NCBI GenBank assembly: GCA_041389045.1
Contig: JAWKSQ010000003.1
Coordinates: 105,598 to 169,597, forward strand
Length of the DNA stretch: 64,000 nucleotides
Direction of reading: 5' to 3'
From: Minisyncoccota bacterium
GTDB taxonomy: Bacteria; Patescibacteriota; Minisyncoccia; Phycocordibacterales; UBA918
The notes beneath the pieces were generated by a model that saw only the letters and a list, made by a program, of their open reading frames with translations, searched no databases and was not told the DNA's origin. Made by a program: the position numbers and the translations under genes. This document shows, in pieces, positions 15,620 to 51,235 of this stretch (its first letter is position 1; every line of letters begins with the position of its first letter).

Positions 15620-16582
15620 TTACTCAGGACTACTACTTGAGGCGGTACTGGTCGGAGTACTGGTAGATAACAGTGACTCGATATCAAAGACGGGCACATT
15701 ATCTAACTTAAAATAGTTACGGCTAACCTCCCTCACTTCATTATTTATTTCCTCCACGGTACGAGGCGCAATATCATCCAAAGCCACCGACACGTATAAA
15801 ATACCTTGCAAAGAAACCGGTGGTGTCACATAACCATACTGCACCGGCTGAGTTGGCGGATTTTCGACACTAATTATTTCACCGTAAACACCACTATCAA
15901 TACTAGGAAGCAAAACTAAGTTACCTTCTTTGAGCGGTATACCTTGTGGCACCCTGACTCTTGCCACACCACCACCCACTCCTTCCAAAGTAGCAAAAAC
16001 GTTAGGGCCAACGACATAAGAAGTTGATTCAAAACCGGGAGTAGTAATTAATTCCACAAAAGAATAATTTGCTGTCGCGTGCACTACCACCCCAATGACT
16101 GTATCAAAACCAATAAACACTGGTGAACCGACTGTAATACCATCCACCAACCCTTTATCGATTTGGAGTAAATCATAAGCCAGACGACTGGGCTGAGCCA
16201 TCACACGCGCTGTCAGACGATTGGTAGTCGTACCAAAATTAGTAGCCGCTCGTAGTTGCATATTCTCCTCTAGCAAACGCCTAATCGACAGCTGTGTACC
16301 GTTTTCGTTGGCGATTTGTTTCTTTAGAGACTCAATCTCCTTTACCAAATCTGACTTTACTCTCAAGTATTTAGGCACACTAGACTCTGAGGTTTGATAC
16401 CACACAGACACGGCATGCACTGGATAAAGCACAACAAAAGATATCCCAGAAATAATCTTCGGAAAAAAGAAACCCACTAATAAAACCACTACTGTAAAGA
16501 CAATACCGAAACGCAGACGTTTACGTGATGTATGGCGAGAGTTCCCCCTCATTATCGATGAGTACTTCTTCATATTGTTCAA
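15620..16582 (-). CDS. mreC: Rod shape-determining protein MreC
   Basis: N-terminal TM helix, a coiled coil, beta-rich domains and a Ser/Thr-rich tail. The true start may be an internal Met (16573 or 16552). Confidence 0.8.
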   Translation of the reverse strand: MNNMKKYSSIMRGNSRHTSRKRLRFGIVFTVVVLLVGFFFPKIISGISFVVLYPVHAVSVWYQTSESSVPKYLRVKSDLVKEIESLKKQIANENGTQLSIRRLLEENMQLRAATNFGTTTNRLTARVMAQPSRLAYDLLQIDKGLVDGITVGSPVFIGFDTVIGVVVHATANYSFVELITTPGFESTSYVVGPNVFATLEGVGGGVARVRVPQGIPLKEGNLVLLPSIDSGVYGEIISVENPPTQPVQYGYVTPPVSLQGILYVSVALDDIAPRTVEEINNEVREVSRNYFKLDNVPVFDIESLLSTSTPTSTASSSSPE

Positions 16583-17594
16583 GATTTTCTATGACAATGC
16601 CTGCTCCCCTCACCACCGCCCGAAGAGGATCCGGCACTACTACCACCGGAACCAGCAATGTCTCCTCCAAAAAAGCCGACAATCCTGGTATAAGCGCTCC
16701 ACCACCGCAAAGATTGATACCTCTCTGCATTATATCAGCCAACACTTCTGGTGGGGTTTTTTCCAGCACTGCCTTGGTAGCTTCAACTATTGTTTCGACC
16801 TGAGTAGAGACAGCGTCTCGTACATCACTAGCAGTAATGATTACTTCTCTTGGCAACCCCGTCATCACATCCCTACCTCTGATAACCATTTCGTTCCCGG
16901 CATTATCACTTTGCACTGAAGCTAACGCTATCTTGGCTTCTTCAGCCGTTTTTTCACCGACATAAACTTTAAATTGATCACGTACATAGGCAGCAATTGC
17001 TACATTGAGATGATCACCGGCTACGCGTAAATTCTTAGCCACCACAATGCCACTAAGTGAAATCACGGCAATATCGGTAGTGCCACCACCGATATCGATT
17101 ATCATACTACCAATAGCTTTGCCGACCGGCAGTTTTGAGCCAATGGCCGCAGCCATTGGCTCTTCAATCAAAAACACTTCACGAGCACCAGCGTTCTTAG
17201 CAGCGTCTCGCGCCGCTCGCATCTCAACGTTCGTAATACCTGACGGCACACCAATGAGTACCCTAGGCGCAACGAGTGAACGCATTTCGCCATGAACTTT
17301 GTTTATCAAATAGCCCAACATCTCTTCAGTTACTTCAAAGTCAGAAATTACTCCATCCACCAAAGGCCTGACCACTTCGATATGTTGTGGTGTCCGCCCC
17401 TGCATAGTCTTAGCTTCATTACCAACGGCCACCAACTGACCAGTTTTTTTATTAATGGCTACAATGGTCGGCTCATTGAGTACAATCCCCTTACCTTTTA
17501 CATACACCAAAGTATTGGCTGTACCCAGGTCAATAGCCATATCGGTCGATACGGTAGACAGGATTCTATTAATTTGTCGGGAGAAAAAACTCAT
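16521..17594 (-). CDS. mreB: Rod shape-determining actin homolog MreB
   Basis: Motifs DLGTANTLVY, DIGGGTTDIA and LCGGGALIPGL. Confidence 0.95.
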   Translation of the reverse strand: MSFFSRQINRILSTVSTDMAIDLGTANTLVYVKGKGIVLNEPTIVAINKKTGQLVAVGNEAKTMQGRTPQHIEVVRPLVDGVISDFEVTEEMLGYLINKVHGEMRSLVAPRVLIGVPSGITNVEMRAARDAAKNAGAREVFLIEEPMAAAIGSKLPVGKAIGSMIIDIGGGTTDIAVISLSGIVVAKNLRVAGDHLNVAIAAYVRDQFKVYVGEKTAEEAKIALASVQSDNAGNEMVIRGRDVMTGLPREVIITASDVRDAVSTQVETIVEATKAVLEKTPPEVLADIMQRGINLCGGGALIPGLSAFLEETLLVPVVVVPDPLRAVVRGAGIVIENLEQYEEVLIDNEGELSPYIT

Positions 17595-33125: not shown

Positions 33126-33188
33126 TATACCCAATTCATGTACAGAGCCAGCTCTAGAGCTAGTTCTGTACTACCAACATCTTCTTAA
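33126..33188. repeat. Left copy of a roughly 60-bp direct repeat with a palindromic core
   Basis: tataccc..gtacag..agctctagagct..tgtactac..catcttc.ttaa recurs at 33750-33807. Confidence 0.7.
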
Positions 33189-33749: not shown

Positions 33750-33807
33750 TATACCCGTACAGAACTAGCTCTAGAGCTGGCTTGTACTACATCACATCTT
33801 CCTTAAT
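33750..33807. repeat. Right copy of the roughly 60-bp direct repeat
   Basis: See 33126-33188. The central palindrome arms are swapped relative to the left copy. Confidence 0.7.
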
Positions 33808-34536: not shown

Positions 34537-35223
34537 ATATAATTAAATAGTAAACTAATTAAACAAAGGATTAACCGTACTTTTTCTATATTCTTTTACT
34601 CTAGAAACAAATTCTAATTCTTCTCCATGGATTCATAAATTGTGGTAATCCATAACTATCACCTTCAAATCTTAACCCTTCTCCTAAATTAGGATAACCT
34701 TCATTTTTCCATCAATATAGCGACTTGCGTACTGGGATTGCTGATTCATTAAAACTCCTGGCTACATCAGAAAATGACACAACCCTTTCTCATCTACTTC
34801 GAATTTTTACCAGGTCTCTACTTTCAAAATTAATCATTCCAGAAATTATATCAATAATTTGTTATACATTTAAACAGTAACCAAAAGTTGCCTCTATCCG
34901 TTATACAAGTATATGAAATGGCATCCTTTTTAAATGCAACTTTGGCAGTCACATACATCAGCGCCCTTGTGCTGTTTATGCATTGTTAATCAATCCGTCA
35001 CGATACAAGACACCCTACTCGATGGTATCGGGGTCATATCTTTTGTCTTTTCAGCAGCGGTGATGGCTTTTCTATTTTCTACCAACCAGTACTCAAGCTT
35101 ATCGAAAACAAAAAGCCGAAGCTTTAGCGTATTTTTAAAAACCTTAGGTATATTCGGAGCCATCACGATAACCGTATTAACACTAGTCAGTCTGCGTAAG
35201 AAGCTAATGAAACTAGATAGGTA

Positions 35224-35367
35224 CCTACCGCTTCGCGAGTACAGCTTGTTTGTAGGCGTCGAGGTGTTCGAGGGCGATACCAGTTCCGGTCGCAACACAG
35301 AAGAGGGCTTCGGCTAATTGTGCCTTGACGCCGGTGTGACGCTTAACCAATTCCTGGAAATTACGGA
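35224..35367 (-). repeat. Diverged second copy of the last ~48 codons of mreB2
   Basis: It translates to LLRNFQELVKRHTGVKAQLAEALFCVATGTGIALEHLDAYKQAVLAKR* against QLRNFPELVKRRTGVKAQLANEALFCVATGTGIALEHLDAYKQAVLAKR* at 35908-36054. Confidence 0.85.
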
Positions 35368-35907
35368 GTAAAGAAAACTGCTCAATTTGATCGATTGATC
35401 TCTATGAATTAAGCAGCTGTCATCAAGACGACATCTAAACCAGTAAAGAACATCTACCCCATGTATCCTCGACGAACTCTTATACGCCCTGATACTGAAC
35501 CAAGCTCAGTTACAAGGTAACGGTCTGCGACTATAGGGAACCGGAAGTGACTCAATCGCTTAAGCTTGCGTCGAGCCAGTCTAAACGACGGTTAGCATCA
35601 TCTAATTCACCTCCAGTGCTCGAAATCGTGCCTCTCTACGGCTGTCAGCAGTCGCAAACCGTTCATCAAGCATCCGCACTACCTCCTCATTGTTAATTCA
35701 ACATAATTCACCTCTCATTTGAGTAGAGCGCCGTGGCACTATTTTACGTGTGCTGTCAACTCGCGACAGCACGCGACCCCTATGGAAGATGATAACTTCC
35801 ACTCCTCATGCTGACCAATCGCTTTGCAATACAGCAAAAAAACTAGTAAACACTAGTAACAATAATGCCTCACACTATCTAAACGTCAAACTTTTTTATT
35901 AAAATTA
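35368..35907 (-). mobile_element. Cassette G: 0.54-kb promoter-to-terminator module between the two mreB2 3'-end copies
   Basis: TTGACG at 35889-35884, then a 23-codon ORF MLDERFATADSRREARFRALEVN behind GAGGAGG, a repeated gaggtgaatta motif, and a terminator at 35371-35416. Confidence 0.35.
35371..35416 (-). terminator. Terminator of cassette G
   Basis: ctgctcaatt (35378-35387) pairs with aattaagcag (35407-35416). On the minus strand ttttctt follows. Confidence 0.45.
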
Positions 35908-35908
35908 C

Positions 35909-36914
35909 CTACCGTTTTGCCAATACAGCTTGTTTGTAGGCGTCGAGGTGTTCGAGGGCGATACCAGTTCCGGTCGCAACACAGAAGAGGGCTTCGTTGG
36001 CTAATTGTGCCTTGACGCCGGTGCGACGCTTCACCAGCTCGGGAAAATTACGCAGTTGTGAAGTTCCACCAGTCATAATCACACCACCATCAATAATGTC
36101 AGCCAACTCCGGTGGTGTATTTTGAAAAACGTCTTTAATAGCTTTAACCATCTCTCTAAGCTCCTTACTAATTGCTCGCACCACTTCATTGGTGCGAATC
36201 TCCGTCGTCCGTGGCAAACCAGACAGTACATCGCGTCCCTTGATGTCCATAGTCAACTCTTCTTCAGTGGTAAGGCTGAACCAACCGTAATTTTGATTTC
36301 CTCAGCGGTCTTATCGCCAATTGAAAGATTCCTGGTCTTTTTGACATAATCCACAATCGCGGTCAATTCTATTGCCGGCACACTTTACGGAGTTGGCCGC
36401 TACAATGCCACCGAGAGAAATGACTGCGACGTCTATAGTACCTCCACCCACATCGACAATCATGTCCTTGTGGTTCATAGATTGGTATACCAGCGCCGAT
36501 CGCTGCCAAAATCGGCTCCTTAACTACGTAAGCATTACGAGCACCGGCTTTAATCGTCGCCTCTACCACCGCCCGTCTTTCGGTCGAAGTTACTCCCGCT
36601 GGCACTGACACCATCACGTCTGGCTTAAAAATATTGAAACGTGGCAAGGCCTTACGTAAGAAATAGCGAAGCATCGTCTCAGTGACACGATAGTCAGCAA
36701 TGACTCCATCTTTCATCGGCCGGTAGGCTCTAATACTGTCTGGTGTTCGTCCAATCATCCGCTTTGCTTCGGCGCCGACTGCCAACACCTGATTATCTTC
36801 AGATATGGCCACCACTGAGGGTTCATTCAGCACTATCCCTTGTCCAGGTACAAATACAAGAATACTAGTGGTACCAAGATCGATACCAATCTTCGGAGTA
36901 AATTTATTAAACAT
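35909..36914 (-). pseudogene. Second MreB paralog, frameshifted
   Basis: The N-terminal ORF 36914-36369 (IGIDLGTTSILVF) loses frame after IYEPQG. The C-terminal ORF 36256-35909 carries VIMTGGTSQLRNF. Confidence 0.75.
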
Positions 36915-36960
36915 TTCTTATATAGTAGCTCTTTTCCCCAAATGTACCAAGTGGAAATTC

Positions 36961-36976
36961 ATAGCATATATGCTAT
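36961..36976. promoter_or_regulatory. Perfect 16-bp palindrome ATAGCATATATGCTAT in the mreB2 / HTH-murA divergent region
   Basis: Read directly from the sequence. It lies 12 nt upstream of the ATG at 36988. Confidence 0.5.
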
Positions 36977-36987
36977 TATCGAAACGT

Positions 36988-38487
36988 ATGAAAAATATTG
37001 GACAATCAATCTCTGACTTACGCGAAACCAAAGGCCTGACCCAAAGTGACCTAGCTAAGGCGCTCAAGACCACTCAGAGCGCCGTAGCCCGCATGGAGAG
37101 CGGTAAACAAAACATCAGCGCTGACATGCTTAGAAAAATCAGTAAAGCCCTGGGTAAAAACCTCATCACCCTCTCCCCTGGCACCGTCAATATTCAAATA
37201 GAGGGTAATAAAAAACTGACTGGCACTATCGAAACTAACACTTCTAAAAATGGTGCGGTTGGTCTACTCTGTGCCAGTTTACTCAACCGTGGCACCACTA
37301 CCCTGCATCACATGCCTCGCATCGAAGAAGTCCACCGGATTATTGAAGTGCTGGAAAGTATTGGTGTTCGCGTGGAATGGAGTGGTAGTACCATCAAAAT
37401 CACTCCCCCCAAGAAGTTCGACCTAAAGAAAATCGACGTTGAAGCGGCTCACCGCACTCGCAGTATCGTCATGTTTATCGGACCCTTGATTCACCTGATG
37501 GAGAAATTCAAACTTCCCCAATCTGGCGGTTGCAAACTCGGTAGTCGTACCGTGAAGCCTCATTTCTACGCCCTAGAACACTTTGGTGTCACTATCAATA
37601 CTACTAGCGACGCCTATGAGGTAAGTAAAGTCCCGGCCTCCCCTTCAGAAATTATTCTCTATGAGTCTGGTGACACCGTCACCGAAAACGCTCTTTTTGC
37701 GGCCGCTAAGACGCCTGGTACCACAACTATCAAATACACTACGTCCAACTACATGGTGCAAGAAGTTTGTACGTTTCTAACTCTACTAGGTGTGAAAATT
37801 GAAGGTTTTGGCACTACTACTCTCAAAGTAACTGGAATCGAAGAAATTAACCAAAATATTGAATATACCCTGTCTGAAGATCCAACTGACTCAATGTTCT
37901 TTATTGCCGCCGCTATCGTCACCAACTCCACTATCACTATCACCCGCTGTCCGATTGAATTCTTGGAGCTAGAACTCCTTAAGCTTGAGAAAATGGGCTT
38001 CGAATACAAGAAATCCAAACCCTATCTTAGTCACAATGGAGTCACAAAACTAGTTGATATTACTACCAAAGCGTCAAAGCTCACCGCGTTACATGAAAAA
38101 GTTTACGGTCGCCCTTACCCTGGCCTCAACATCGATAACCTCCCTTTCTTTGCCGTCATAGCCACTCAAGCTGAAGGACAGACTCTTATCCATGACTGGG
38201 TTTATGAAAAGCGAGCCATCTACTTTACCGAACTAGACAAACTCGGCGCCGAGACGGTTCTAGCCGACCCACATCGTATCTACATCACCGGACCAACGCC
38301 ACTGCGCGCTGCCGAACTCATTTGTCCACCAGCCCTTCGTCCGGCTACTATCCTGCTGATTGCCATGCTCGGTGCCAAAGGTACTTCAATCCTACGTAAC
38401 ATCTACAGCATCAACCGTGGCTACGAAAAGTTGATCGAAAGACTTGGGTCCCTCGGCGCCCACGTCTCATACCTAGACGAGTTTTAA
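36988..38487 (+). CDS. murA: XRE-type HTH domain fused to UDP-N-acetylglucosamine 1-carboxyvinyltransferase
   Basis: The N-terminus IGQSISDLRETKGLTQSDLAKALKTTQSAVARMESGKQN is an HTH_3-like domain. The MurA/EPT fold follows, including LPQSGGCKLGSRTVKPH with the catalytic Cys. An alternative ATG lies at 36970. The track ORF start at 36805 is antisense to mreB2. Confidence 0.8.
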   Translation: MKNIGQSISDLRETKGLTQSDLAKALKTTQSAVARMESGKQNISADMLRKISKALGKNLITLSPGTVNIQIEGNKKLTGTIETNTSKNGAVGLLCASLLNRGTTTLHHMPRIEEVHRIIEVLESIGVRVEWSGSTIKITPPKKFDLKKIDVEAAHRTRSIVMFIGPLIHLMEKFKLPQSGGCKLGSRTVKPHFYALEHFGVTINTTSDAYEVSKVPASPSEIILYESGDTVTENALFAAAKTPGTTTIKYTTSNYMVQEVCTFLTLLGVKIEGFGTTTLKVTGIEEINQNIEYTLSEDPTDSMFFIAAAIVTNSTITITRCPIEFLELELLKLEKMGFEYKKSKPYLSHNGVTKLVDITTKASKLTALHEKVYGRPYPGLNIDNLPFFAVIATQAEGQTLIHDWVYEKRAIYFTELDKLGAETVLADPHRIYITGPTPLRAAELICPPALRPATILLIAMLGAKGTSILRNIYSINRGYEKLIERLGSLGAHVSYLDEF

Positions 38488-40915: not shown

Positions 40916-41449
40916 ATGGCTAAATTAGTACCAGAAAACCACCCAGTTTTACACGCTATCGCCGAGGAGGTAACTCCGGAGGAATTTGCTGACGGTACGG
41001 TAAAAAAGATTGTCAAAGACCTACGCTCGGCTATCAAAACCTACAAAGTCGACGGTTTTACAGCAGTAGCGATTGCGGCTCCACAGATTGGCGTTGGTAA
41101 ACGAGTTTTTATCATTGAAGATCAAAGTGCCGACGCTGACCGACTCCCAACAGTCATCGCCGTTAACCCGCGCTTTACCAAAATGTCCAAGAAAACACAC
41201 GTGGTCGGCGAAGGCTGTTTGTCTATACCAGAGCAATACGGATTAGTTCGCCGTTCGACTAACGTCACTATCGAAGCCAAAGACGAGAACGGTGTCCCAT
41301 TCACCCGTGGAGCTGGCGGTCTCCTGGCCCAAATCATGCAACACGAATACAATCATCTCGACGGAATTCTCTTTACCGACATTGCCGAAAAAGTCTGGAG
41401 TAAAGATGACTTAGACCGAGGCAAAGTTACCGAAGCACCTCTGACATGA
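40916..41449 (+). CDS. def: Peptide deformylase
   Basis: Motifs EGCLSIP and HEYNHLDG. Confidence 0.9.
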   Translation: MAKLVPENHPVLHAIAEEVTPEEFADGTVKKIVKDLRSAIKTYKVDGFTAVAIAAPQIGVGKRVFIIEDQSADADRLPTVIAVNPRFTKMSKKTHVVGEGCLSIPEQYGLVRRSTNVTIEAKDENGVPFTRGAGGLLAQIMQHEYNHLDGILFTDIAEKVWSKDDLDRGKVTEAPLT

Positions 41450-42297
41450 AAATAGCTTTTTTTGGTACCCCAGAATTAGCCGTTAATGCTCTGAGCGAAA
41501 TGGAGAGTTTTGGTGTGGTGCCAAATCTAATTGTCACCACCCCAGACGTTCCGGTCGGCAGAAAGCAACTCATTACTCCACCACCCACCAAAGTCTGGGC
41601 CACCGAGCGATCTATACCCGTGTTTCAACCCACGACTTTAAAGAACCCCGAAGACCTGAAAGTTTTGACTGAAGAGACTTGGGATTTTTTTGTGGTCTTT
41701 GCCTACGGGAAAATTATGCCGACCTGGCTAATAGACCTACCAAAGTACGGCACCATCAATGCTCACCCTTCACTACTACCAAAGTTGCGTGGTGCCAGCC
41801 CGATTCGTAGCACCTTACTACACGACTTAAGTGCCTCTGGAGTCACCATTATTAAAATGGATAATGAAGTAGACCACGGACCGATTTTATACCAACTACC
41901 TGTACCACTCGAAAAGCCTATACCGGGCCGAGAGCTAGACAAAACCCTCAGTCTGATCTGTGGCGACTTACTAGTACAAGTGATTAAAGACATGACAGAA
42001 GGTACTATCGCTCCCCAAGCGCAAAAACATGACGAAGCCACTTTTTGCACCAAGATCACCAAAGAAATGTCCGAGCTAAGCCTTGATCCCTATCACCCTT
42101 TATCTGGACAAGAAGCTTATGATACTTACCGGAAGATCTGCGCTTTTGATGGCTGGCCGGAGACATTTTTTATCTACCAGGGTAAAAGAATTAAAATAAA
42201 GTCTGCCACGCTAGATAATGATGGTAATCTCCAAATTCTCCGCATCGTACCCGAAGGCAAAAACGAAACTGACTTCGATAGGTATTTCCCCACATAA
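41446..42297 (+). CDS. fmt: Methionyl-tRNA formyltransferase
   Basis: Motifs INAHPSLLPKLRGASPI and MKIAFFGTP. It overlaps the def stop. Confidence 0.9.
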   Translation: MKIAFFGTPELAVNALSEMESFGVVPNLIVTTPDVPVGRKQLITPPPTKVWATERSIPVFQPTTLKNPEDLKVLTEETWDFFVVFAYGKIMPTWLIDLPKYGTINAHPSLLPKLRGASPIRSTLLHDLSASGVTIIKMDNEVDHGPILYQLPVPLEKPIPGRELDKTLSLICGDLLVQVIKDMTEGTIAPQAQKHDEATFCTKITKEMSELSLDPYHPLSGQEAYDTYRKICAFDGWPETFFIYQGKRIKIKSATLDNDGNLQILRIVPEGKNETDFDRYFPT

Positions 42298-43977: not shown

Positions 43978-44051
43978 AAGAAACATTTAACTTTGTCATG
44001 CTTTCATTATACTACGATTCTTGGAACAACGTATCCACACCCCTAAGACAG

Positions 44052-44079
44052 TTGAATATTCATGGTTTTTCTGTACAAT
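44052..44079 (+). promoter_or_regulatory. Candidate tRNA-Asn promoter TTGAAT-16-TACAAT
   Basis: The -35 is at 44052-44057 and the -10 at 44074-44079, about 48 nt upstream of the tRNA. Confidence 0.45.
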
Positions 44080-44127
44080 ACACAGCACTTACTAGGAAAT
44101 TGTTGAAATAGTGAGTAAATACTACCT

Positions 44128-44199
44128 TCCGCGGTAGCTCAGTGGTAGAGCAGGTCGCTGTTAACGACTTGGTCGTAGGTTCGAATCCTACCCGCGGAG
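44128..44199 (+). tRNA. tRNA-Asn (anticodon GTT)
   Basis: Manual cloverleaf: acceptor tccgcgg/ccgcgga, D arm gctc-agtggta-gagc, anticodon arm ggtcg-ctGTTaa-cgact, T arm gtagg-ttcgaat-cctac. CCA is not encoded. Confidence 0.9.
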
Positions 44200-44243
44200 C
44201 AATATAAAAGTCCCCTTTTGGGGATTTTTATATTGCTCCGCGG
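44192..44243. terminator. 24-bp inverted repeat that includes the tRNA 3' acceptor strand (bidirectional-terminator-like)
   Basis: ccgcggagcaatataaaagtcccc-tttt-ggggatttttatattgctccgcgg. Confidence 0.6.
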
Positions 44244-44368
44244 AACAAGCAAACAATTTTGCTTGTGTGTAGGATTCGAAAAGATGGAGTATATCGCACG
44301 AGCGAAGCGAAGTACGATACGACATCTGTACAGCCCATGTAATGGGAGAAACTCCTACCCGCGGAGCC
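44197..44368 (+). repeat. Repeat E1: ~170-nt element ending in a split copy of the tRNA-Asn T arm and acceptor
   Basis: It is about 93% identical by eye to 45546-45712. It contains gtagg-attcgaa, then an insert of ~73 nt, then cctac-ccgcgga-gcc. Confidence 0.8.
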
Positions 44369-44372
44369 AACA

Positions 44373-44401
44373 TTGACATAGCACACTTTGTGTGCTATTG
44401 T
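44373..44401 (+). promoter_or_regulatory. Promoter TTGACA-17-TATTGT with an embedded palindrome ATAGCACAC-TTT-GTGTGCTAT
   Basis: The -35 is at 44373-44378, the -10 at 44396-44401 and the palindrome at 44378-44398. Confidence 0.6.
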
Positions 44402-44448
44402 CTTTTTAGTAAAACGTCGATCCTTTCCATAACTCTACGAGGCACCTC

Positions 44449-44919
44449 ATGACCAAAATCATTTGTGCCTTCGCAGGCACAGGTAAGACAACAGCTTCCC
44501 AGAGCACTCTGTGGCACGTACGAGATAGCGACAGTGATGAATTTCGGTTCATTAACGCACGTCTCAATCGAAAACCAGAAGGTCAAAACCCGCTCTGGCC
44601 ACAAAACTACATCGACCACGCCGTCACGGAATATGCCAAGGGTGACTTTGATGCAATCCTGATGTCCGCGTACGTCGAACTTCTGCCCAGGATTGCAGAG
44701 CGTATTCCACTCACCTACGTCTATCCATCACTGGATATGAAAGATGAGTTCGAGATGCTTTATCGCAATCGTGGCAATCCCAACTGGCTGGTAAGTCTGC
44801 TCATTAACCACTACGATGAATGGATCACGGCACTGATGGCAATGGATGGGCATCACGTCGTTTTGAAACCTGACCAGTACCTGACTGATGTTCTGCCTGA
44901 AATATTGGCAGGAACCTAG
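44449..44919 (+). CDS. Small P-loop NTPase (156 aa) of cassette A
   Basis: Walker A FAGTGKTT at residues 8-15. GAGG lies 8 nt upstream of the ATG. The ORF is intact and has its own terminator. Confidence 0.6.
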   Translation: MTKIICAFAGTGKTTASQSTLWHVRDSDSDEFRFINARLNRKPEGQNPLWPQNYIDHAVTEYAKGDFDAILMSAYVELLPRIAERIPLTYVYPSLDMKDEFEMLYRNRGNPNWLVSLLINHYDEWITALMAMDGHHVVLKPDQYLTDVLPEILAGT

Positions 44920-44962
44920 CTCGCCGATGGAAAGCTTTCCATCTTGGCGAGCTTTTCATTTT
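44919..44962 (+). terminator. Rho-independent terminator
   Basis: gctcgcc-gatggaaag/ctttccatc-ggcgagc followed by cttttcatttt. Confidence 0.7.
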
Positions 44963-44990
44963 GTTAGAGCTAGAAGATGATTAGCACCTA

Positions 44991-45019
44991 TTGATTCTTT
45001 ATTACTTGTACCATATAGT
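44991..45019 (+). promoter_or_regulatory. Promoter TTGATT-17-TATAGT
   Basis: The -35 is at 44991-44996 and the -10 at 45014-45019. GGAGA and the ATG at 45072 lie downstream. Confidence 0.5.
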
Positions 45020-45071
45020 TACAAATGCCAAGTAACGTGCTTGGTTGTACCCTTAACTTTTGGAGATATCC

Positions 45072-45443
45072 ATGAAAACTGCCTTGTCTTTGCCGATGGG
45101 TACCACCAAGGTCGCGCACCTCCCACTTTCGACATGCACCGTGTGGAAGCGTCACTGTTGACCAACCACAAGTTGTTCGACGGCATTGCTCTCTCCGAGC
45201 AAGCGGTTAAGGAAGCGTCACTCAGATCGCGCCTTTCTCCAGCGACACAAAGAAGCTGGTATGCCGACTGATTTCGGAACTTCTCAAGATCGTCGATCGT
45301 GTGTGGCACACGCACATGTGCGAAACTCGCCAATGCCGCAGACTGGAGGTTCGTACTTCGGCCAGATGTTCCATCACTCGAACGACACCTGTGACATGAA
45401 GCTGCTCCGCAGGAGTAAGGTAGGGCAGAACCTTCGCCCCTGA
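45072..45443 (+). other. Second transcription unit of cassette A; coding frame unresolved
   Basis: The frame from the ATG at 45072 runs 124 codons to the TGA at 45441, but with an in-frame TGA at 45159-45161. Other frames and the opposite strand are also open. Confidence 0.3.
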
Positions 45444-45448
45444 ACTAG

Positions 45449-45500
45449 CCCGCACGAAACACCCGCCAACCTTTGGCAAGTTTCGTCCGGGTTTTTCTTT
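45449..45500 (+). terminator. Rho-independent terminator
   Basis: cccgcacgaaac (45449-45460) pairs with gtttcgtccggg (45480-45491) at 11 of 12 positions, then tttttctttt. Confidence 0.65.
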
Positions 45501-45545
45501 TACCTCAATCCCAAACCGTAGCGTTCGAACATCATTCACCCAGCG

Positions 45546-45712
45546 GAGCAATATAAAAGTCCCTTTGGGATTTTTTTATATTGCTCCTGGAACAAGCAAA
45601 CAATTTTGCTTGTGTGTAGGGTCAAAAGATGGAGTATATCGCACGAGCGAAGCGAAGTACGATACGACATCTGTAAGCCCATGTAATGGGAGAAATTCCT
45701 ACCCACGAAGAA
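45546..45712 (+). repeat. Repeat E2 (second copy of E1, tRNA-like parts more decayed)
   Basis: It aligns with 44197-44368. The differences concentrate in gtagggtcaaaag and cctacccacgaag. Confidence 0.8.
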
Positions 45713-45715
45713 ATA

Positions 45716-45752
45716 TTGACAAGGCCATTATACATTGTATAATGGCCTTGTC
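45716..45752 (+). promoter_or_regulatory. Consensus promoter TTGACA-16-TATAAT inside a perfect 15-bp-arm palindrome
   Basis: gacaaggccattata-cattg-tataatggccttgtc at 45718-45752. Confidence 0.65.
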
Positions 45753-46476
45753 TGTTCAAGATTAACGTTCTTTGGAGGAAGAGAATGATTGATACACCGG
45801 AAAAGATCAGGAATACCTCTTTGTTACCGAACCGGCCAAACCCGAAGAACCGAAAGAGGTTCGCATCCACCCTCTGTCTGTAGTTGCTACAAGCACGAGA
45901 AGTTGATTTTGGTCTTTGAGAGGGCTAGAAAGGAGCTTCCCTGCTTGGAAGCACAGTGGAGCAACTCGAATGCTGTGCTGTTACTGCAATGCTCACTCAT
46001 CGTCCTGAAGTTGTAGCTTGCTACAAACAGCAGGACATGGCCGAGCAGAAGCTGGCCCAGATCAAGGCTCATACCCCGTTCATTGCAAAGGCTTGCCACT
46101 ACATTCGCGCTTTCGAGTGATGAATGACCTATCTACAACTGAAAGAGTAACCTATGGACAAAACACCTGGGTCGTACCTGGACAGTATCCGACCAAACCT
46201 TCTTGGAGGCCATAAAGCTGGAAAGGAGGGACCGAGGAAGCCCATGCTTCACTCTAAAGAAAGGTTACTTTACTCCACCCCGCTCGACCATGGAACCTAG
46301 GTTTTCAAAGACAGAGGTATGGGAAGGGTGATTTACGCCATTCTCGATAAGTTCGGTGATTTGATCGTAGAGGCACGTCGAGAAGTTGCCGCATATCGTT
46401 TGCGGTAAACGACTATAAGGGGCTTTAGCTTCAAGAGCAAGCTAACACAGACCGTCACACCAAGTGGAAGAAAGGA

Positions 46477-46520
46477 CCGTCGTCCCCACTTCCCCCACTT
46501 CGGTGCGGCGGTTTTCTTTT
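46477..46520 (+). terminator. Terminator of cassette B
   Basis: ccgtcg pairs with cggcgg (one G-U pair), then ttttcttttt. Confidence 0.45.
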
Positions 46521-46561
46521 TATATACTCACACAAGTTCGAACATCCTTAACCTATCGGAG

Positions 46562-46929
46562 TAAATATTGACAAAGCCAGTATGTATGACAAACTGTCTT
46601 TGTTCTGTTCACACCTAAAGGGAGATTATCTTGAGTACCTTAGAAAAAACTTTGAAGTGCACTTCATATGCGGATGGGAGGGTCGACGAGTCATCGAGAC
46701 CCTGAAGCCAAAATCCGATAAAAAGCATTCTTACACTTGGTAGGAACCCGGCCTGCAGGGATCAAAATGCCCCAATGCCAATCTGATACGACACCCAGCA
46801 CCAAGCAATTGGTGTCGTGACAACCACCGCCACACTACTAGTGAGACGAGAAAGCTAACGCTTCGTCTCACGGGGTGGCGGCTTTTTCATTTACATAAAA
46901 AGTTCGAACATCATCAAAAGTCCAGAGCA
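46562..46929 (+). mobile_element. Cassette C (shortest unit) ending at junction R3
   Basis: aaatattgacaaagcc at 46563-46578, GGGAG plus the TTG at 46631, a terminator at 46827-46890 and R3 gttcgaacatcatcaaaagtccagagca at 46902-46929. Confidence 0.35.
46827..46890 (+). terminator. Nested-hairpin terminator
   Basis: gtgagacga (46841-46849) pairs with tcgtctcac (46863-46871). This is enclosed by ccgcc/ggcgg, then ctttttcattt. Confidence 0.6.
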
Positions 46930-46975
46930 TCCAACATAAAAAGCACCCTTTAGGGTGTTTTTCTATGTTGATGCT
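46926..46975. terminator. Hairpin analogous in shape to 44192-44243 but with a different sequence
   Basis: agcatccaacataaaaagcaccc-ttta-gggtgtttttctatgttgatgct. Confidence 0.5.
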
Positions 46976-47107
46976 TTGCAGGAGAAAGAAACGGCATTGC
47001 TTTCGTTAGGATTAGACTCATCTGATATCCTCTCAGAGGATATTTTCTTAAGCGGATTTATAATTTATCCATCTCGGTACGCTACCGATTTAGTTAAAAT
47101 TTTAAAT

Positions 47108-47827
47108 ATGAATAATACTTTAAACAAGTTTAGGAAACATGCAATTCTAACGGGTATTTTTTTTCTCATTACTGACGTAATAGCCATTGTCGGACTACTT
47201 TTATATCAACCATTGCTAAACAACCCAAAATTCATTACTACTTTAGATGTTAATGCCACTCAAATCCTGATTGGTACTTTTGTCTGGAGATAATTCTAGC
47301 AATTGGTATTGTCGGTACGGCACTTGCTCTATATCCAATTTTGAAAAAACAAAATCAATCACTAGCACTTGGGTACGTGATATTTAGGGCTATGGAAGCC
47401 ACAATAATTCTAATCGGGGTAGTGTGTATTCTCTCGACACTTTCACTTTCGTCTAGACTTAGCAATAGGTGGTGATGCCTCTGTTTATGAAACAATCGGT
47501 ACAGCACTAATAGCGCTCCAGAAATGGACATTCTTGTTCGGACCAAATATTATCTTGCCAATAAACGCAACGATTCTAGGATACATACTATATAAATCAA
47601 GATTAGTCCCTCGACTAATTTCTGCTCTTTATTTATTTGATGTCCCAATCCTGCTTATCTCTAGTGTATTTATACTATTTGGATTTTATGAACAGACTGC
47701 GCCATTTGCAATAATCATTGCCATGCCAGCACTAGCTTTTGAGGTTTCATTTTCTCTTTGGCTCATAATTAAAGGCTTTGACACGCAAGCTCTGACATCA
47801 CTAGAAAATAAACGTGGTTTGTATTAG
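47108..47827 (+). pseudogene. DUF4386-like membrane protein, two frame changes
   Basis: The pieces MNNTLNKFRKHAILTGIFFL, LEIILAIGIVGTALALYPILKK and the ORF 47534-47827 (FEVSFSLWLIIKGF) tile one protein. Confidence 0.55.
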
Positions 47828-48477
47828 TTATTACTAATATCTCTCATAAGGCTAAAGAACCAGAGAATCTGACTAATAACAAAAATTCCGATTCCGATGT
47901 CTGTTAGATATGGTAGTGCAGAGATAGTTCCTCCAATAAAAACTAATGCGCCTAGTATGTTTGTGACCATTGAGCTAAATCGTGCTTTATACATCGCCAG
48001 ACTCAAGAGTCCAGTAAAGACACCTCCCATCAGCTCATTGCCGCCACCAAGAGCATTGCTAATGATATCAATGGCTTGCCAAGCAAAGACTAGCTCACTA
48101 GCAGCAGTTCCGTTCATGAGAAGAGTAGTAAGTCCCATAGATATGAATCCACTAGCAATCAAAATAGTTGCCCAGATAACGCCAGTAATCAGACTTAGCA
48201 ATCCAAGAATTGGTTGTTTTTCCTTTAGTCTCAGATACAAGTATGTTGCAAGCAGAATAATTCCAAATGAAAATATAATGTATATGTGTAAAGTAGTAAT
48301 GTGGACCAGGACTGGGTTATTACCAATAATATCTATTTGTTCGCTAGCTGAAGTCGCGCTGTCGTACTGTAATAATTGTAGGTATACAAATATTCCAGCG
48401 ATGTAAGAAAAACCACCATATGCAGCACTTATAGTGGCTATTTTTTTGAAAAACAACATACAAAAAGCATACCACAT
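47824..48477 (-). CDS. Hypothetical polytopic membrane protein
   Basis: 217 aa with about six TM helices. Confidence 0.45.
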   Translation of the reverse strand: MWYAFCMLFFKKIATISAAYGGFSYIAGIFVYLQLLQYDSATSASEQIDIIGNNPVLVHITTLHIYIIFSFGIILLATYLYLRLKEKQPILGLLSLITGVIWATILIASGFISMGLTTLLMNGTAASELVFAWQAIDIISNALGGGNELMGGVFTGLLSLAMYKARFSSMVTNILGALVFIGGTISALPYLTDIGIGIFVISQILWFFSLMRDISNN

Positions 48478-48568
48478 TGATTATTGATCAATCTAGTTCG
48501 TATTGAATATTTTTCTAGTTAACATTTCTTAACTAATCTGGCATAGAGTTATTTGTTATACTGTTTTA

Positions 48569-48757
48569 ATGAATTTTTTAAAAAGATTTTACACCTGGGA
48601 AAAGAAACAAATGAAAAATCCAGAAACTGTACTCAGTGTTTGGATCACTTTCGGTGTTTTACTAGGTATAGGAATTGATAATGTTGGTGCGGGTATAGCT
48701 ATAGGTGTTGCTATCGGAATTGCCCTGTATACAAATGTTAAAAACAATAATAAGTAA
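48569..48757 (+). CDS. Small membrane protein
   Basis: 62 aa with one Gly/Ile-rich hydrophobic stretch. Confidence 0.3.
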   Translation: MNFLKRFYTWEKKQMKNPETVLSVWITFGVLLGIGIDNVGAGIAIGVAIGIALYTNVKNNNK

Positions 48758-48763
48758 TAAATC

Positions 48764-49667
48764 ATGAAAGCAGTTATTGCCAACGGTTATGGTGCCCCAG
48801 AAGTTTTAAGTGTCAAAGAAGTTGACAGACCAAAACCTAAAAGTAACGAAATATTAATTAAAGTGACGGCGTCTTCACTCAACTCCGGTGATGTCCGCAT
48901 GCGCGCACTAGATGGAGGTGACGGTATTAAAGGTTTTATAGCCAAGATTGTCATCCGCTTGTTAGTAGGTATAACAAAACCAAAACGTATTCCCGGGAGT
49001 GTTTTAGCAGGAGATTGTCGAGGTTGGTGAGAGTGTAACTCGCTTTAAAGTTGGTGATGAAGTCTATGCCATGGCCGGCTTTAAGTTTGGTGCTTTTGCA
49101 GAATACTGCGTGTTACCCGAGACTGGCACAATTGCCCTAAAACCTAAGACCGCAAGCTTTGAGGAAGCGAGCACTCTGCCGTTTGGTGGCACCACCGCAC
49201 TTTATTTTTTACGGAAAGCTGGCACGAAACCTGGTAAGAAGGTGCTTATCTATGGATCGACTGGTGCCGTTGGTACTTCAGCCGTACAAGTTGCCAAGTA
49301 TCTTGGTGCAGAAGTAATCGCTGTCAGTGGTCCAGATGGCATCAAACTAACAACCAGATTGGGCGCTTCAAAAGTCTACAACTACAAAGAAACTACTCTG
49401 GAAAATATTACAGAAACATTTGATGTTATCTTTGATGCGGTGGGTAAAATATCTAAGAACGAAGCAATCCACTTACTAGCTGACAATGGTCAATATGTGA
49501 CAGTGGCCGGCTTAGATGTAGCCAAGGAAGGATCAGAGGGTCTGGAAGAACTGGCTCGTATGTATGATGAAGGCAAGTTAGTGGCCGTCATTGATAAAAC
49601 TTTCCCCTTGGACCAAATTGTTGAAGCAAATCACTATGTCGATTCGGGTCGAAAAAAGGTAGCGTAG
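48764..49667 (+). pseudogene. Zinc-type alcohol dehydrogenase / quinone oxidoreductase family (MDR), one frame change
   Basis: ORF 48764-49030 and ORF 49071-49667 join near 49008-49013 (LAG / EIVEVGESVTRFKVGDEV). The Rossmann motif YGSTGAVG is present. Confidence 0.7.
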
Positions 49668-49775
49668 TCATCAGCATTTAGTTTTAATAGTTTAATATTT
49701 GATATCGACTATTTCCTTGTCTTAACATTGAGTCGAGGCCATTCTTTTCAAGATTTATATAGAGAAATGAATGTT

Positions 49776-50250
49776 TTAATTTAGGTAACTATCAAAATAA
49801 ATAGCGTGACAGGTATAGCCACCAGGGTGTTTTTCTAGATAATCCTGATGATAATCTTCTGCTGGCCAAAACCTTTCAAAAGGCTCCAGTGTCGTTACCA
49901 CCCTATCTTCCCATCGTCCTGACTCGTCAACGATCTCAATCATTTCTTCAGCCACAGCTTTTTCCTGCTTCATCTTGGAAAAATATTGCCGAACGATAAG
50001 AAGTACCCTTATCATTACCTGCTGATTTAAAGTGGTGGGGTTATGAATTTGAAAGAAGAAATCGAGAATATGCTTATAGTCAATTACGTCCGTCTCATAC
50101 CAATCTCAGTGCCTCGGCGTGACCCGAATGATTTTCGTAAGTAGGATTATCATTCTTTCCTCCGGTATACCCAGCCTCAGTCGTAACTAATCGGGCAAAT
50201 TTCTAAACAAATCTTCCAAACCCCAAAACATCCACCGGCTAAATAAGCTT
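49776..50250 (-). pseudogene. msrA: Peptide-methionine (S)-S-oxide reductase, several frame changes
   Basis: The ATG at 50250 opens MTKKAYLAGGCF. Shifted frames give WGLEDLF, EAGYTGGKNDNPTYENHSGHAEALRLV, YETDVIDYKHILDFFFQIHNPTTLNQQ and the ORF 50015-49776 (FWPAEDYHQDYL). Confidence 0.75.
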
Positions 50251-50289
50251 TCTTTGTCATATGGTATTACTATAGCAAATGTTTAAATC

Positions 50290-51235
50290 TGGTTGAAAAT
50301 AATCTTTTCTCCATAAGAATTAATCACTATTGAGAAATCTTTATAGTATGATTTGATTCTCTGGCCTCAAAGACGCAGGTTTGTTCCCCACAACTACCCA
50401 GGAAAATCATGTCCCAACAGAAAAAGGCCCGCGGGGCCGACTGACTTTCAGCTTCGTAACCAGATCCGTATATGACGCCCTTTTGGTCATGCAGACTCAC
50501 GGCCACCACCGCACTGGCTTTGGCGGTCGACAGCGACGTTACATTCACTTTTCCAAGACTGGCGATGGCGAGATCAGTATTTGCCGTTCCGACGGACCAC
50601 ACATTTGGAACTACGATCGGAACGCCTTTATCAACAAGGCCGTCAGGTGCTACCTGGAATTGATCGCACGGTCACGGTGGAACCTGGCGCCGGACTCGAC
50701 TACATCCCTGCTTACGAGCAGATGATGACGAAACTGAACAATCCCAGATTTGCCCTCAAGACGTTGGAAAACCTGGGTCATTTCCTGCGCCGACAAAGGT
50801 TTATCAGTTGAACGCGCTGGCCGAAATGGCCAAGGACGATCGACCGGAAACGCCGGCGACAATCATCGAGCTGTGCGCTCCTGAGCAGAATCTGCTATTG
50901 GGCAAAACGGATGAGTCTCCTGGTGAACTTCATTCAGAAGATGTCTCAAAGCGACCGCTACTCCAAACCATCGACACTGTCAGGTCTTCTGGAGGCGCTG
51001 TTCATGAGCGGCTAGCGATTCCGATGAAGACGGCTTCGACGCATTCGGAAGCTTTGCAGACATGCTTCGTCAACAGACTAAGCGATCGGATCGGCCCTGG
51101 CCACATGACCAACGGCGTCGTGAAGGCGCACGTCTTCTGATAAACCCTTTGACGGCGTTAGATAACGCCGCAAACCCACCGCAAATGTGTGTGAGAATTA
51201 CTCGACTAGCATAGTGGTAGGTTTTTCTTTATATA
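50290..51235 (+). mobile_element. Cassette F: GC-rich insert between msrA and pspC
   Basis: Hand counts give 63% GC for 50641-50700 and 47% for 50881-50940. The plus-strand reading from the ATG at 50409 to the TGA at 51140 needs frame changes. The tail gtggtaggtttttctttatatat overlaps the pspC stop codon. Confidence 0.35.
51175..51230 (+). terminator. Candidate terminator of cassette F
   Basis: cccaccgc (51175-51182) pairs imperfectly with gtggtagg (51214-51221), then tttttcttt. Confidence 0.3.

Follow-up and report, generated by a model that had tools for sequence, protein, structure and literature searches.

What is the element of roughly 170 nt that follows a tRNA-Asn gene in this 64,000-nt stretch of DNA (hereafter the window), and why does it fold into an outline resembling a tRNA? 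The preliminary description reported two near-identical copies of a repeat (44197-44368 and 45546-45712, hereafter E1 and E2, members of an element called E). It interpreted them as a copy of the tRNA T arm and acceptor split by a large insertion in the T loop, and proposed that the repeat was either an att-site relic or a transcribed tRNA-like RNA. The repeat exists as it was described. As to what it is, the description was right in part, since the link to an att site is supported by our data whereas the RNA reading is not. We propose that E belongs to a large and apparently undescribed family of hairpin-rich DNA modules, located just after tRNA genes in candidate-phyla-radiation (CPR) bacteria, which most likely act as recombination junctions of small gene-cassette arrays; we hold this reading to be only slightly more probable than not, and its mechanism is inferred rather than shown.

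The tRNA gene was identified by ARAGORN and by the Rfam model RF00005 (72.7 bits), and two near-identical direct repeats start at 44191 and 45540. All the elements previously listed are present in the sequence, including an insert of about 72 nt that contains the stems agatg...catct (44282-44327) and ccca-tgtaa-tggg (44334-44346). The organisation of the locus is as follows.

44128-44200, plus strand: tRNA-Asn(GTT), the only tRNA found by ARAGORN in the window; its T-loop-to-3'-end segment (44180-44200, ttcgaatcctacccgcggagc) is the sequence copied in E.
44201-44234, no strand assigned: 34-nt hairpin hpA (aatataaaagtcccc-tttt-ggggatttttatatt) with A- and T-rich flanks, a bidirectional terminator-like hairpin and the centre of a long palindrome joining the tRNA 3' end to the inverted arm of E.
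44235-44280, plus strand: left module of E1, with the inverted copy of the tRNA 3' end (gctccgcgg at 44235-44243, also the right end of a palindrome with 24-bp arms formed with the tRNA 3' end, and gtaggattcgaa at 44269-44280), interrupted by hairpin HP1 (44246-44265, caagcaaa/tttgcttg) and ending in the TTCGAA core.
44281-44352, plus strand: right module of E1, with the bulged hairpin HP2 (44282-44327), the linker gtacag, the small hairpin HP3 (44334-44346, cccatgtaatggg), then agaaac.
44353-44367, plus strand: direct repeat of the tRNA 3' end (tcctacccgcggagc), repeating the last 15 bases of the tRNA (44186-44200; an exact 14-nt repeat), which pairs with the inverted arm to give the acceptor-like and T-stem-like helices.
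44369-45522, plus strand: cassette 1, with a promoter-like TTGACA-17-TATTGT overlapping a palindrome (44373-44401), a 156-aa P-loop-like ORF (44449-44919), a terminator-like hairpin, then frame-shifted ORF remains.
45523-45549, plus strand: cassette-end site 1 (GTTCGAAC-atcattcaccca-GCGGAGC), a T-loop-like core plus a pseudo tRNA 3' end that is 5 nt longer than in the tRNA.
45550-45582, no strand assigned: second copy of the hairpin (hpA').
45583-45710, plus strand: E2, with a degenerate core (gtagggtc-aa) and a degenerate direct repeat (tcctacccacgaag).
45711-46535, plus strand: cassette 2, starting with a perfect TTGACA-16-TATAAT promoter inside a palindrome (45716-45743) and holding only short ORFs.
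46536-46562, plus strand: cassette-end site 2 (GTTCGAACATCcttaacctatCGGAGT), followed directly by cassette 3 with no E between.
46563-46901, plus strand: cassette 3, with a AAATATTGACA start, a short ORF and a terminator-like hairpin.
46902-46929, plus strand: cassette-end site 3 (GTTCGAACATCatcaaaagtccAGAGCA).
46933-47040, plus strand: hairpin hpB (46933-46971), followed by a possible truncated third E, with an HP1-like gaaagaaacggcattgctttc, then gttaggatt, then unrelated sequence; the evidence for it is weak (covariance model only 9.2 bits, E 0.38, at 46975-47040).

Folding of both copies, one of the checks suggested at the outset, gave the structures that had been drawn, with -46.9 kcal/mol (z -4.4) for E1 and -36.8 kcal/mol (z -2.9) for E2. 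The closing stem of E2, for which 5 of 6 pairs had been said to remain possible, has one compensated pair (C-G to T-A), one deleted base and one broken pair, with five pairs remaining, which looks more like decay than selection. The origin of the tRNA-like outline requires a correction. The 5' part is not a copy of the 5' acceptor and 5' T-stem strands of the tRNA, but the reverse complement of the tRNA from the T loop to just past the discriminator, interrupted by HP1. This is visible in relatives whose T loops are not palindromic, for example in L086, where the tRNA has TTCGATT and the element AATCGAA (L numbers denote the loci or contigs of relatives). A degenerate tandem duplicate of the tRNA is rejected on the same grounds, since the complement also includes the discriminator. 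The 3' part is a direct copy that starts at tRNA position 57-60 in 45 of 51 cases and ends at position 74-79 in 33 of 51. In this view, because both arms derive from the 3' segment of the tRNA they can pair with each other, and this pairing (7 to 9 plus 6 to 9 bp) produces the tRNA-like outline. The possibility that the 5' pairing is only a by-product of the adjacent terminator palindrome had been raised beforehand as grounds for doubt, and when the tRNA end is included in a DNA-parameter fold (44180-44370) the inverted arm does pair through hpA with the tRNA end rather than with the 3' repeat of E itself (-60.1 kcal/mol, z -12.1). The terminator-like scan, which seeks a GC-rich stem followed by a T run, found nine sites against 2.8 expected; of hpA it reports only the core stem on the minus strand at 44224-44211, and it also reports the second copy on the plus strand at 45555-45575, and 46957-44944 on the minus strand.

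Is E found elsewhere? The host is a Paceibacteria/Parcubacteria (CPR) bacterium, and the formyltransferase gene (fmt) upstream of the tRNA (41446-42297) has its best relatives in Paceibacteria/Parcubacteria genomes at 75% identity or less, in eleven of which a tRNA-Asn gene lies downstream of fmt. Elements with the same layout follow the tRNA-Asn in L004, L009, L021, L027, L015 and L026, and occur further into arrays in L013 and L018; their stems differ in sequence from genome to genome, whereas the outer arms always match the genome's own tRNA. A degenerate pattern built from the conserved positions matched at least 120 metagenome stretches. A covariance model built from 35 copies gave 17 hits in the genome loci, 151 in 100 sources and 43 in 32 further sources; it finds about 190 copies in 9 related genomes and about 120 metagenome contigs, and it scores E1 at 106.8 bits (44236-44365) and E2 at 70.8 bits (45583-45709). 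ARAGORN places a same-strand tRNA ending 34-360 nt upstream of 68 of 128 pattern hits, covering 16 anticodon types, of which Asn, several Arg, Tyr and two Lys types are the commonest; many of the remaining hits follow intron-containing tRNA-Asn genes, lie at contig ends, or are internal array copies. The Rfam search that had been recommended found no family matching E, either at gathering or at permissive thresholds: at E up to 10 over 44000-47100 only the true tRNA is reported, and the same holds in 10 other loci. The blastn searches of phage and plasmid collections, and scans of viral contigs with an exact E segment and with the degenerate pattern, likewise returned nothing. Viral scans with two cassette-end patterns gave 0 and 8 hits, the latter in unrelated, apparently coding sequence of high GC with no E or hairpin beside them, which we judge to be chance matches. 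Full-text literature searches found nothing describing the module.

The structure is supported by strong covariation, the very property whose absence from further homologues had been named as a reason to abandon it. Across 136 distinct aligned copies, 91.6% of cells form a standard pair against 67.3% in shuffles, 841 cells have a change on both sides against 255, and the covariation score is 0.545 against 0.04-0.11 with slid partners. HP1 is paired in 96% of cells, with compensatory changes in all 5 modelled pairs, the base of HP2 in 93% and HP3 in 98.5%, and the T-stem-like helix falls within the same range of 93-98.5%. This alignment is fitted to the model, so these figures lean towards the structure, although the seed alignment made by MAFFT already showed compensatory changes in 19 of 27 pairs. 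The mismatch classes indicate which molecule carries the structure. The helices of E, acceptor-like stem excluded, contain 48 G-T, 34 A-C and 75 other mismatches, and the 50 best copies 7, 4 and 14, whereas the acceptor and T stems of tRNAs in the same loci contain 56, 1 and 3. Many copies may be decaying, which would inflate A-C mismatches and weakens this wobble argument; folding HP2 on either strand also gives equal G-U counts (74 against 66). The helices thus tolerate G-T no better than A-C, which is what hairpins in DNA would show and argues for a DNA-level structure rather than an RNA.

The behaviour of E within arrays is consistent with a recombination junction. Within single contigs, the left module (inverted arm plus HP1, up to TCGAA) and the right module (HP2-HP3) reassort at the internal TTCGAA, the left against right module identities being 1.00/0.19 in L015, 0.98/0.11 in L141, 0.82/0.03 in L013, 0.48/0.97 in L121 and 0.24/0.79 in L167; in the window, E2 is 82% identical to E1 in the left module and 99% in the right. 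In L175 a two-gene cassette is joined directly to an E left module at the core. Contigs L105 and L175 are 93-97% identical, but L105 carries an additional 1.76-kb unit made of a pseudo tRNA 3' end, a hairpin, an E and a promoter-bearing cassette, lying between two copies of a 19-nt core (TTACTGACAAAGTTCTRAC) that is single in L175. No excised circle or empty site was observed for the window itself, where cassettes 1-3 each begin with AAYATTGACA plus a palindrome and each end with GTTCGAACATC-N10/11-(C)GGAGC, resembling the T loop to 3' end of the tRNA with 5 extra bases. Exact GTTCGAACATC occurs three times in the window, and the same kind of site occurs in L011, L013, L015, L026, L105, L121 and others. 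Tandem arrays occur in L013, L015, L105, L121, L171 and L175. The exact crossover position and the nature of the pseudo-3'-end sites are ambiguous, since two readings fit the 5-bp spacing difference, one placing the crossover at the extreme 3' end of the tRNA and the other inside TTCGAA; the indel and module-reassortment data favour TTCGAA.

Which enzyme could act on these sites? Proteins of about 500 aa with Resolvase, Recombinase and zinc-ribbon domains, corresponding to large serine recombinases, are encoded on the opposite strand right after tRNA-Asn in L011, L019 and L022. By tblastn, genes or C-terminal fragments were found right after the tRNA in L006, L020 and L037, and C-terminal fragments start right after the direct repeat of E in L189, L191 and L201, so that genes or fragments lie next to the tRNA or the repeat in 9 or more loci. 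The direct repeat therefore serves in relatives as a second insertion point for recombinase elements, and the L011 element ends, 7.8 kb away, in a cassette-end site. In the window, by contrast, Pfam found no recombinase domain among the 30 ORFs tested, so that the adjacency of a large serine recombinase to the target gene, seen in relatives, is left undecided for this locus. No recombinase stood out among 106 ORFs within about 3 kb downstream of E copies, and no Phage_integrase was hit in the window ORFs tested or among the 25 most frequent of the 122 Pfam families matched by those 106 ORFs; genomes were not searched as a whole. All-against-all clustering of ORFs within 6 kb of 125 E loci recovered only host synteny families. 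Cassette 1 gave no Pfam, NCBIfam or PADLOC hit, annotation of the cassette cargo with NCBIfam and PADLOC gave no hit for the window ORFs, and an exact-protein look-up of the 156-aa cassette protein found nothing, while that of the neighbouring ribosome-hibernation-factor-like (Ribosomal_S30AE) protein returned only 1-kb contigs. Any enzyme must act in trans, and its identity is inferred.

These features can be compared with known systems. The Dehalococcoides ssrA genomic islands, and SCCmec-type accretion by CcrB-like large serine recombinases (PMC3146451), also have a single-copy tRNA-like gene as target, insertion in mid T loop, a 20-bp repeat, tandem islands or cassettes bounded by direct repeats of the gene's 3' end, a recombinase on the reverse strand next to the gene (here in relatives L011, L019, L022 and L037) and cargo units without a recombinase, presumably mobilised in trans. 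Here, however, the units are tiny (0.17-1.8 kb), at least 16 tRNA types are involved, and many units carry or consist of a hairpin-rich module with an inverted copy of the target; a text search of that paper returned no occurrence of 'inverted repeat' or 'hairpin'. Integron attC sites are likewise structured sites between gene cassettes, with Watson-Crick DNA hairpins, a variable terminal structure, pairing conserved while sequence is free, and a recombinase that need not be adjacent, as in CALIN-like arrays. E differs in that its core is TTCGAA and its arms are copies of a tRNA segment, with no GTTRRRY R-box consensus seen in the alignments and no IntI found in the ORFs examined, in that the cassettes carry their own promoters and terminators, and in that the array is anchored at a tRNA gene rather than at attI. 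The folded attP of CTX-phage type, used by elements that rely on host Xer recombinases, shares an inverted and a direct copy of the target-like site separated by about 75-100 nt, which in single-stranded form rebuild a duplex copy of the target, as well as tandem integration and the lack of a recombinase of its own. In E the target is a tRNA 3' segment rather than dif, the spacer is itself a conserved two-hairpin domain, and there is no evidence of a single-stranded genome or of Xer use; no free forms were found in the viral, phage or plasmid collections, and Xer-dependent integration was not assayed. Compared with tRNA, tmRNA and tRNA-like RNAs (RF00005, clan CL00001), the acceptor-like and T-stem-like helices are identical in sequence to those of the neighbouring tRNA, but there is no D arm, anticodon arm or intact T loop.

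We therefore interpret E as a DNA-level recombination module of small cassettes and mini-elements that insert into the T loop of tRNA genes in CPR bacteria and pile up as arrays downstream of the tRNA. Its left half comprises a terminator-type hairpin and the inverted tRNA segment split by HP1, and its right half HP2, HP3 and the direct copy, the two being joined at the T-loop-derived TTCGAA core. The analysis itself establishes the family, its linkage to tRNA genes and the matching of its arms to the neighbouring tRNA, hairpins maintained by compensatory change with Watson-Crick pairs only, the reassortment of the halves at the core, the gain or loss of units containing E between T-loop-like cores, and the use of the direct repeat as an insertion point by large-serine-recombinase elements. 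By inference only, we suggest that a recombinase supplied in trans crosses over at the TTCGAA cores, the leading candidate being a large serine recombinase of the kind found next to tRNA-Asn in relatives, that the hairpins work as folded single-stranded or cruciform DNA, as integron attC sites or the CTX-phage attP do, and that each E re-creates a tRNA-3'-end-like landing site, so that arrays can grow. Known large serine recombinases act on short duplex sites and need no hairpins, which leaves the role of HP1-HP3 unexplained under that enzyme. The hairpins suggest a folded-DNA step, which is a hypothesis. The orientation of E relative to GC skew, examined as a sign of a single-strand mechanism, showed no bias and was uninformative. 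It can further be hypothesised, although we consider it unlikely, that CPR bacteria carry a tRNA-anchored, integron-like cassette-capture system in which E acts as folded single-stranded DNA, the arms copied from the target tRNA supplying target matching and the conserved HP2/HP3 domain being the handle for a recombinase acting in trans; the same module could then serve any tRNA through the universal T-loop TTCGAA core.

Other explanations account for part of the data, but each appears unlikely. A transcribed tRNA-like non-coding RNA, co-transcribed with the tRNA by read-through, cut by RNase P and RNase Z at the acceptor-like stem and acting through its HP2/HP3 domain, would fit the stable branched fold and the covariation, the purine-rich internal loops (GAG / CGAA), the conserved HP3 loop YGTAR, the greater plus-strand stability of HP2 under RNA parameters in 91 of 108 copies, and the copies that follow the tRNA at 34-37 nt with no terminator hairpin between. 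It is argued against by the wobble counts, by the absence of an Rfam match, by arms that always equal the neighbouring tRNA instead of drifting by covariation, by the reassortment of the halves at a fixed internal point, by the preference of the 5' arm for the tRNA end, and by the position of E, which in the window lies between a terminator-like hairpin and the promoter of the next cassette, with no room for a promoter of its own, and in many other copies between two terminator-like hairpins; transcription itself was not examined. Readings as a group I or other intron in the T loop, or as a tmRNA-like, Y-RNA-like, hammerhead-like or retroviral primer-binding-site-like element, were also dropped, because the motifs do not fit or Rfam did not match them.

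An inert scar, consisting of a displaced tRNA 3' fragment (attR) left by old integrations plus an inverted copy made by template-switch extension of the terminator palindrome, is the least likely of these alternatives. The direct repeat does look like a classical displaced tRNA fragment, E2 and the possible third E are decaying, and many copies in the low-scoring tail of the covariance search are degenerate. However, about 190 copies beside 16 tRNA types have the same three-hairpin architecture, with the compensatory changes described above and conserved loop and junction nucleotides (TCGAAR, RYACNG, YGTAR), and a scar would not keep hairpins paired at 93-98%; E is thus more than a relic. A purely duplex role is slightly less improbable but still doubtful. 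In this view the direct repeat plus the following hairpin would be a spare attB, the TTCGAA-flanking arms ordinary half-sites for a large serine recombinase, and the hairpins coincidental palindromic binding sites or terminators insulating the cassettes. It is favoured by the recombinase genes or fragments abutting the repeat, by the mid-T-loop insertion of the ssrA islands, and by the 5-bp longer spacer between GTTCGAA and GCGGAGC in the cassette-end sites than in the tRNA, which is reportedly the difference between serine-integrase attP and attB half-sites (Rutherford et al, 2013), a correspondence not tested here. Protein-binding palindromes, however, conserve sequence, whereas HP1, HP2 and HP3 change sequence freely while keeping pairing; moreover, HP1 splits the supposed half-site by about 25 bp, and E occurs beside many tRNA types where no cassette or recombinase trace is seen.

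At the practical level, tRNA-like or RNA-like structures beside tRNA genes in metagenome-assembled genomes may be recombination sites, and contigs often break there, as in L003 and L005, which both end just after tRNA-Asn. If the module is a folded-DNA recombination site, it would be a third kind beside integron attC and CTX-type attP, with arms that follow the target sequence, and its small size (about 130 nt) and apparent retargeting to many tRNAs would make it directly testable in vitro with the co-occurring serine recombinases. CPR bacteria have tiny genomes, and little is known about how they gain genes; this locus shows a compact and modular route, in which small self-expressed cassettes stack downstream of tRNA genes, separated by a conserved and widespread hairpin module.

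Within the window, a direct repeat (96% and 86% identity) is found at 35222-35369 and again at 35906-36056, at a spacing of about 685 nt, and an ORF matching only the N-terminal half of MreB lies nearby (36369-36914, minus strand), in addition to a full mreB at 16521-17594, a configuration that looks like duplicated or decayed gene copies. The EPSP synthase gene at 36805-38487 encodes an N-terminal Cro/C1-type helix-turn-helix domain, which is an unusual fusion. In addition, a perfect 26-bp inverted repeat (33146-33171 and 33757-33782) flanks 585 nt, and it is possible that this corresponds to a small mobile or invertible segment. The stretch at 47000-50300, which lies between the cassette array and a GC-rich broken ORF, exhibits a lower GC content (36-42%) and contains genes that appear frame-shifted on visual inspection, namely a membrane protein at 46955-47827, a zinc-type oxidoreductase-like gene at 48764-49667 and an MsrA-like gene on the minus strand at 49776-50260. 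The GC-rich (47-50%) coding region that follows, at 50381-51140, is split over three overlapping frames (ORFs 50381-50725, 50581-50811 and 50808-51140) and gave no family hit; we hypothesise that it may be a decayed cassette gene detached from the array.

The tRNA-Asn genes of many relatives carry an insert in the anticodon loop, as observed in the loci designated L006, L007, L010, L015, L016, L018, L022, L027, L033 and L105 (for example at 598-1196 in L105 and at 12900-13040 in L027). The insert contains the group-I-intron-like motif GATGATATAGTCC, and these genes are missed by ARAGORN. In L105, a 599-nt segment is present at this position and is absent from L136 and L175, which are otherwise near-identical to it. 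The contigs of the two closest relatives, L003 (contig end 6097) and L005 (contig end 12414), end 50-110 nt after tRNA-Asn, suggesting that assemblies break at these repeat-rich arrays. Elements of the E type, the hairpin-rich module found downstream of tRNA genes, also occur head to tail with only a hairpin, or nothing, between them, in L190 (1793-2048), where two copies sit at a 128-nt period, in L084 (7203-7516) and in L105 (1279-1586), and these are arrays of E without any cassettes. Every cassette starts 1-8 nt after a tRNA-3'-end-like GGAGC, with AAYATTGACA followed by a cassette-specific palindrome that overlaps the -10 region, both in the window (44369-44404, 45711-45751 and 46563-46603) and in L005 (12364-12414), L013 (13049-13090) and L121 (5040-5080). 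This arrangement looks like an operator for a cassette-specific repressor, or like part of the attachment site.
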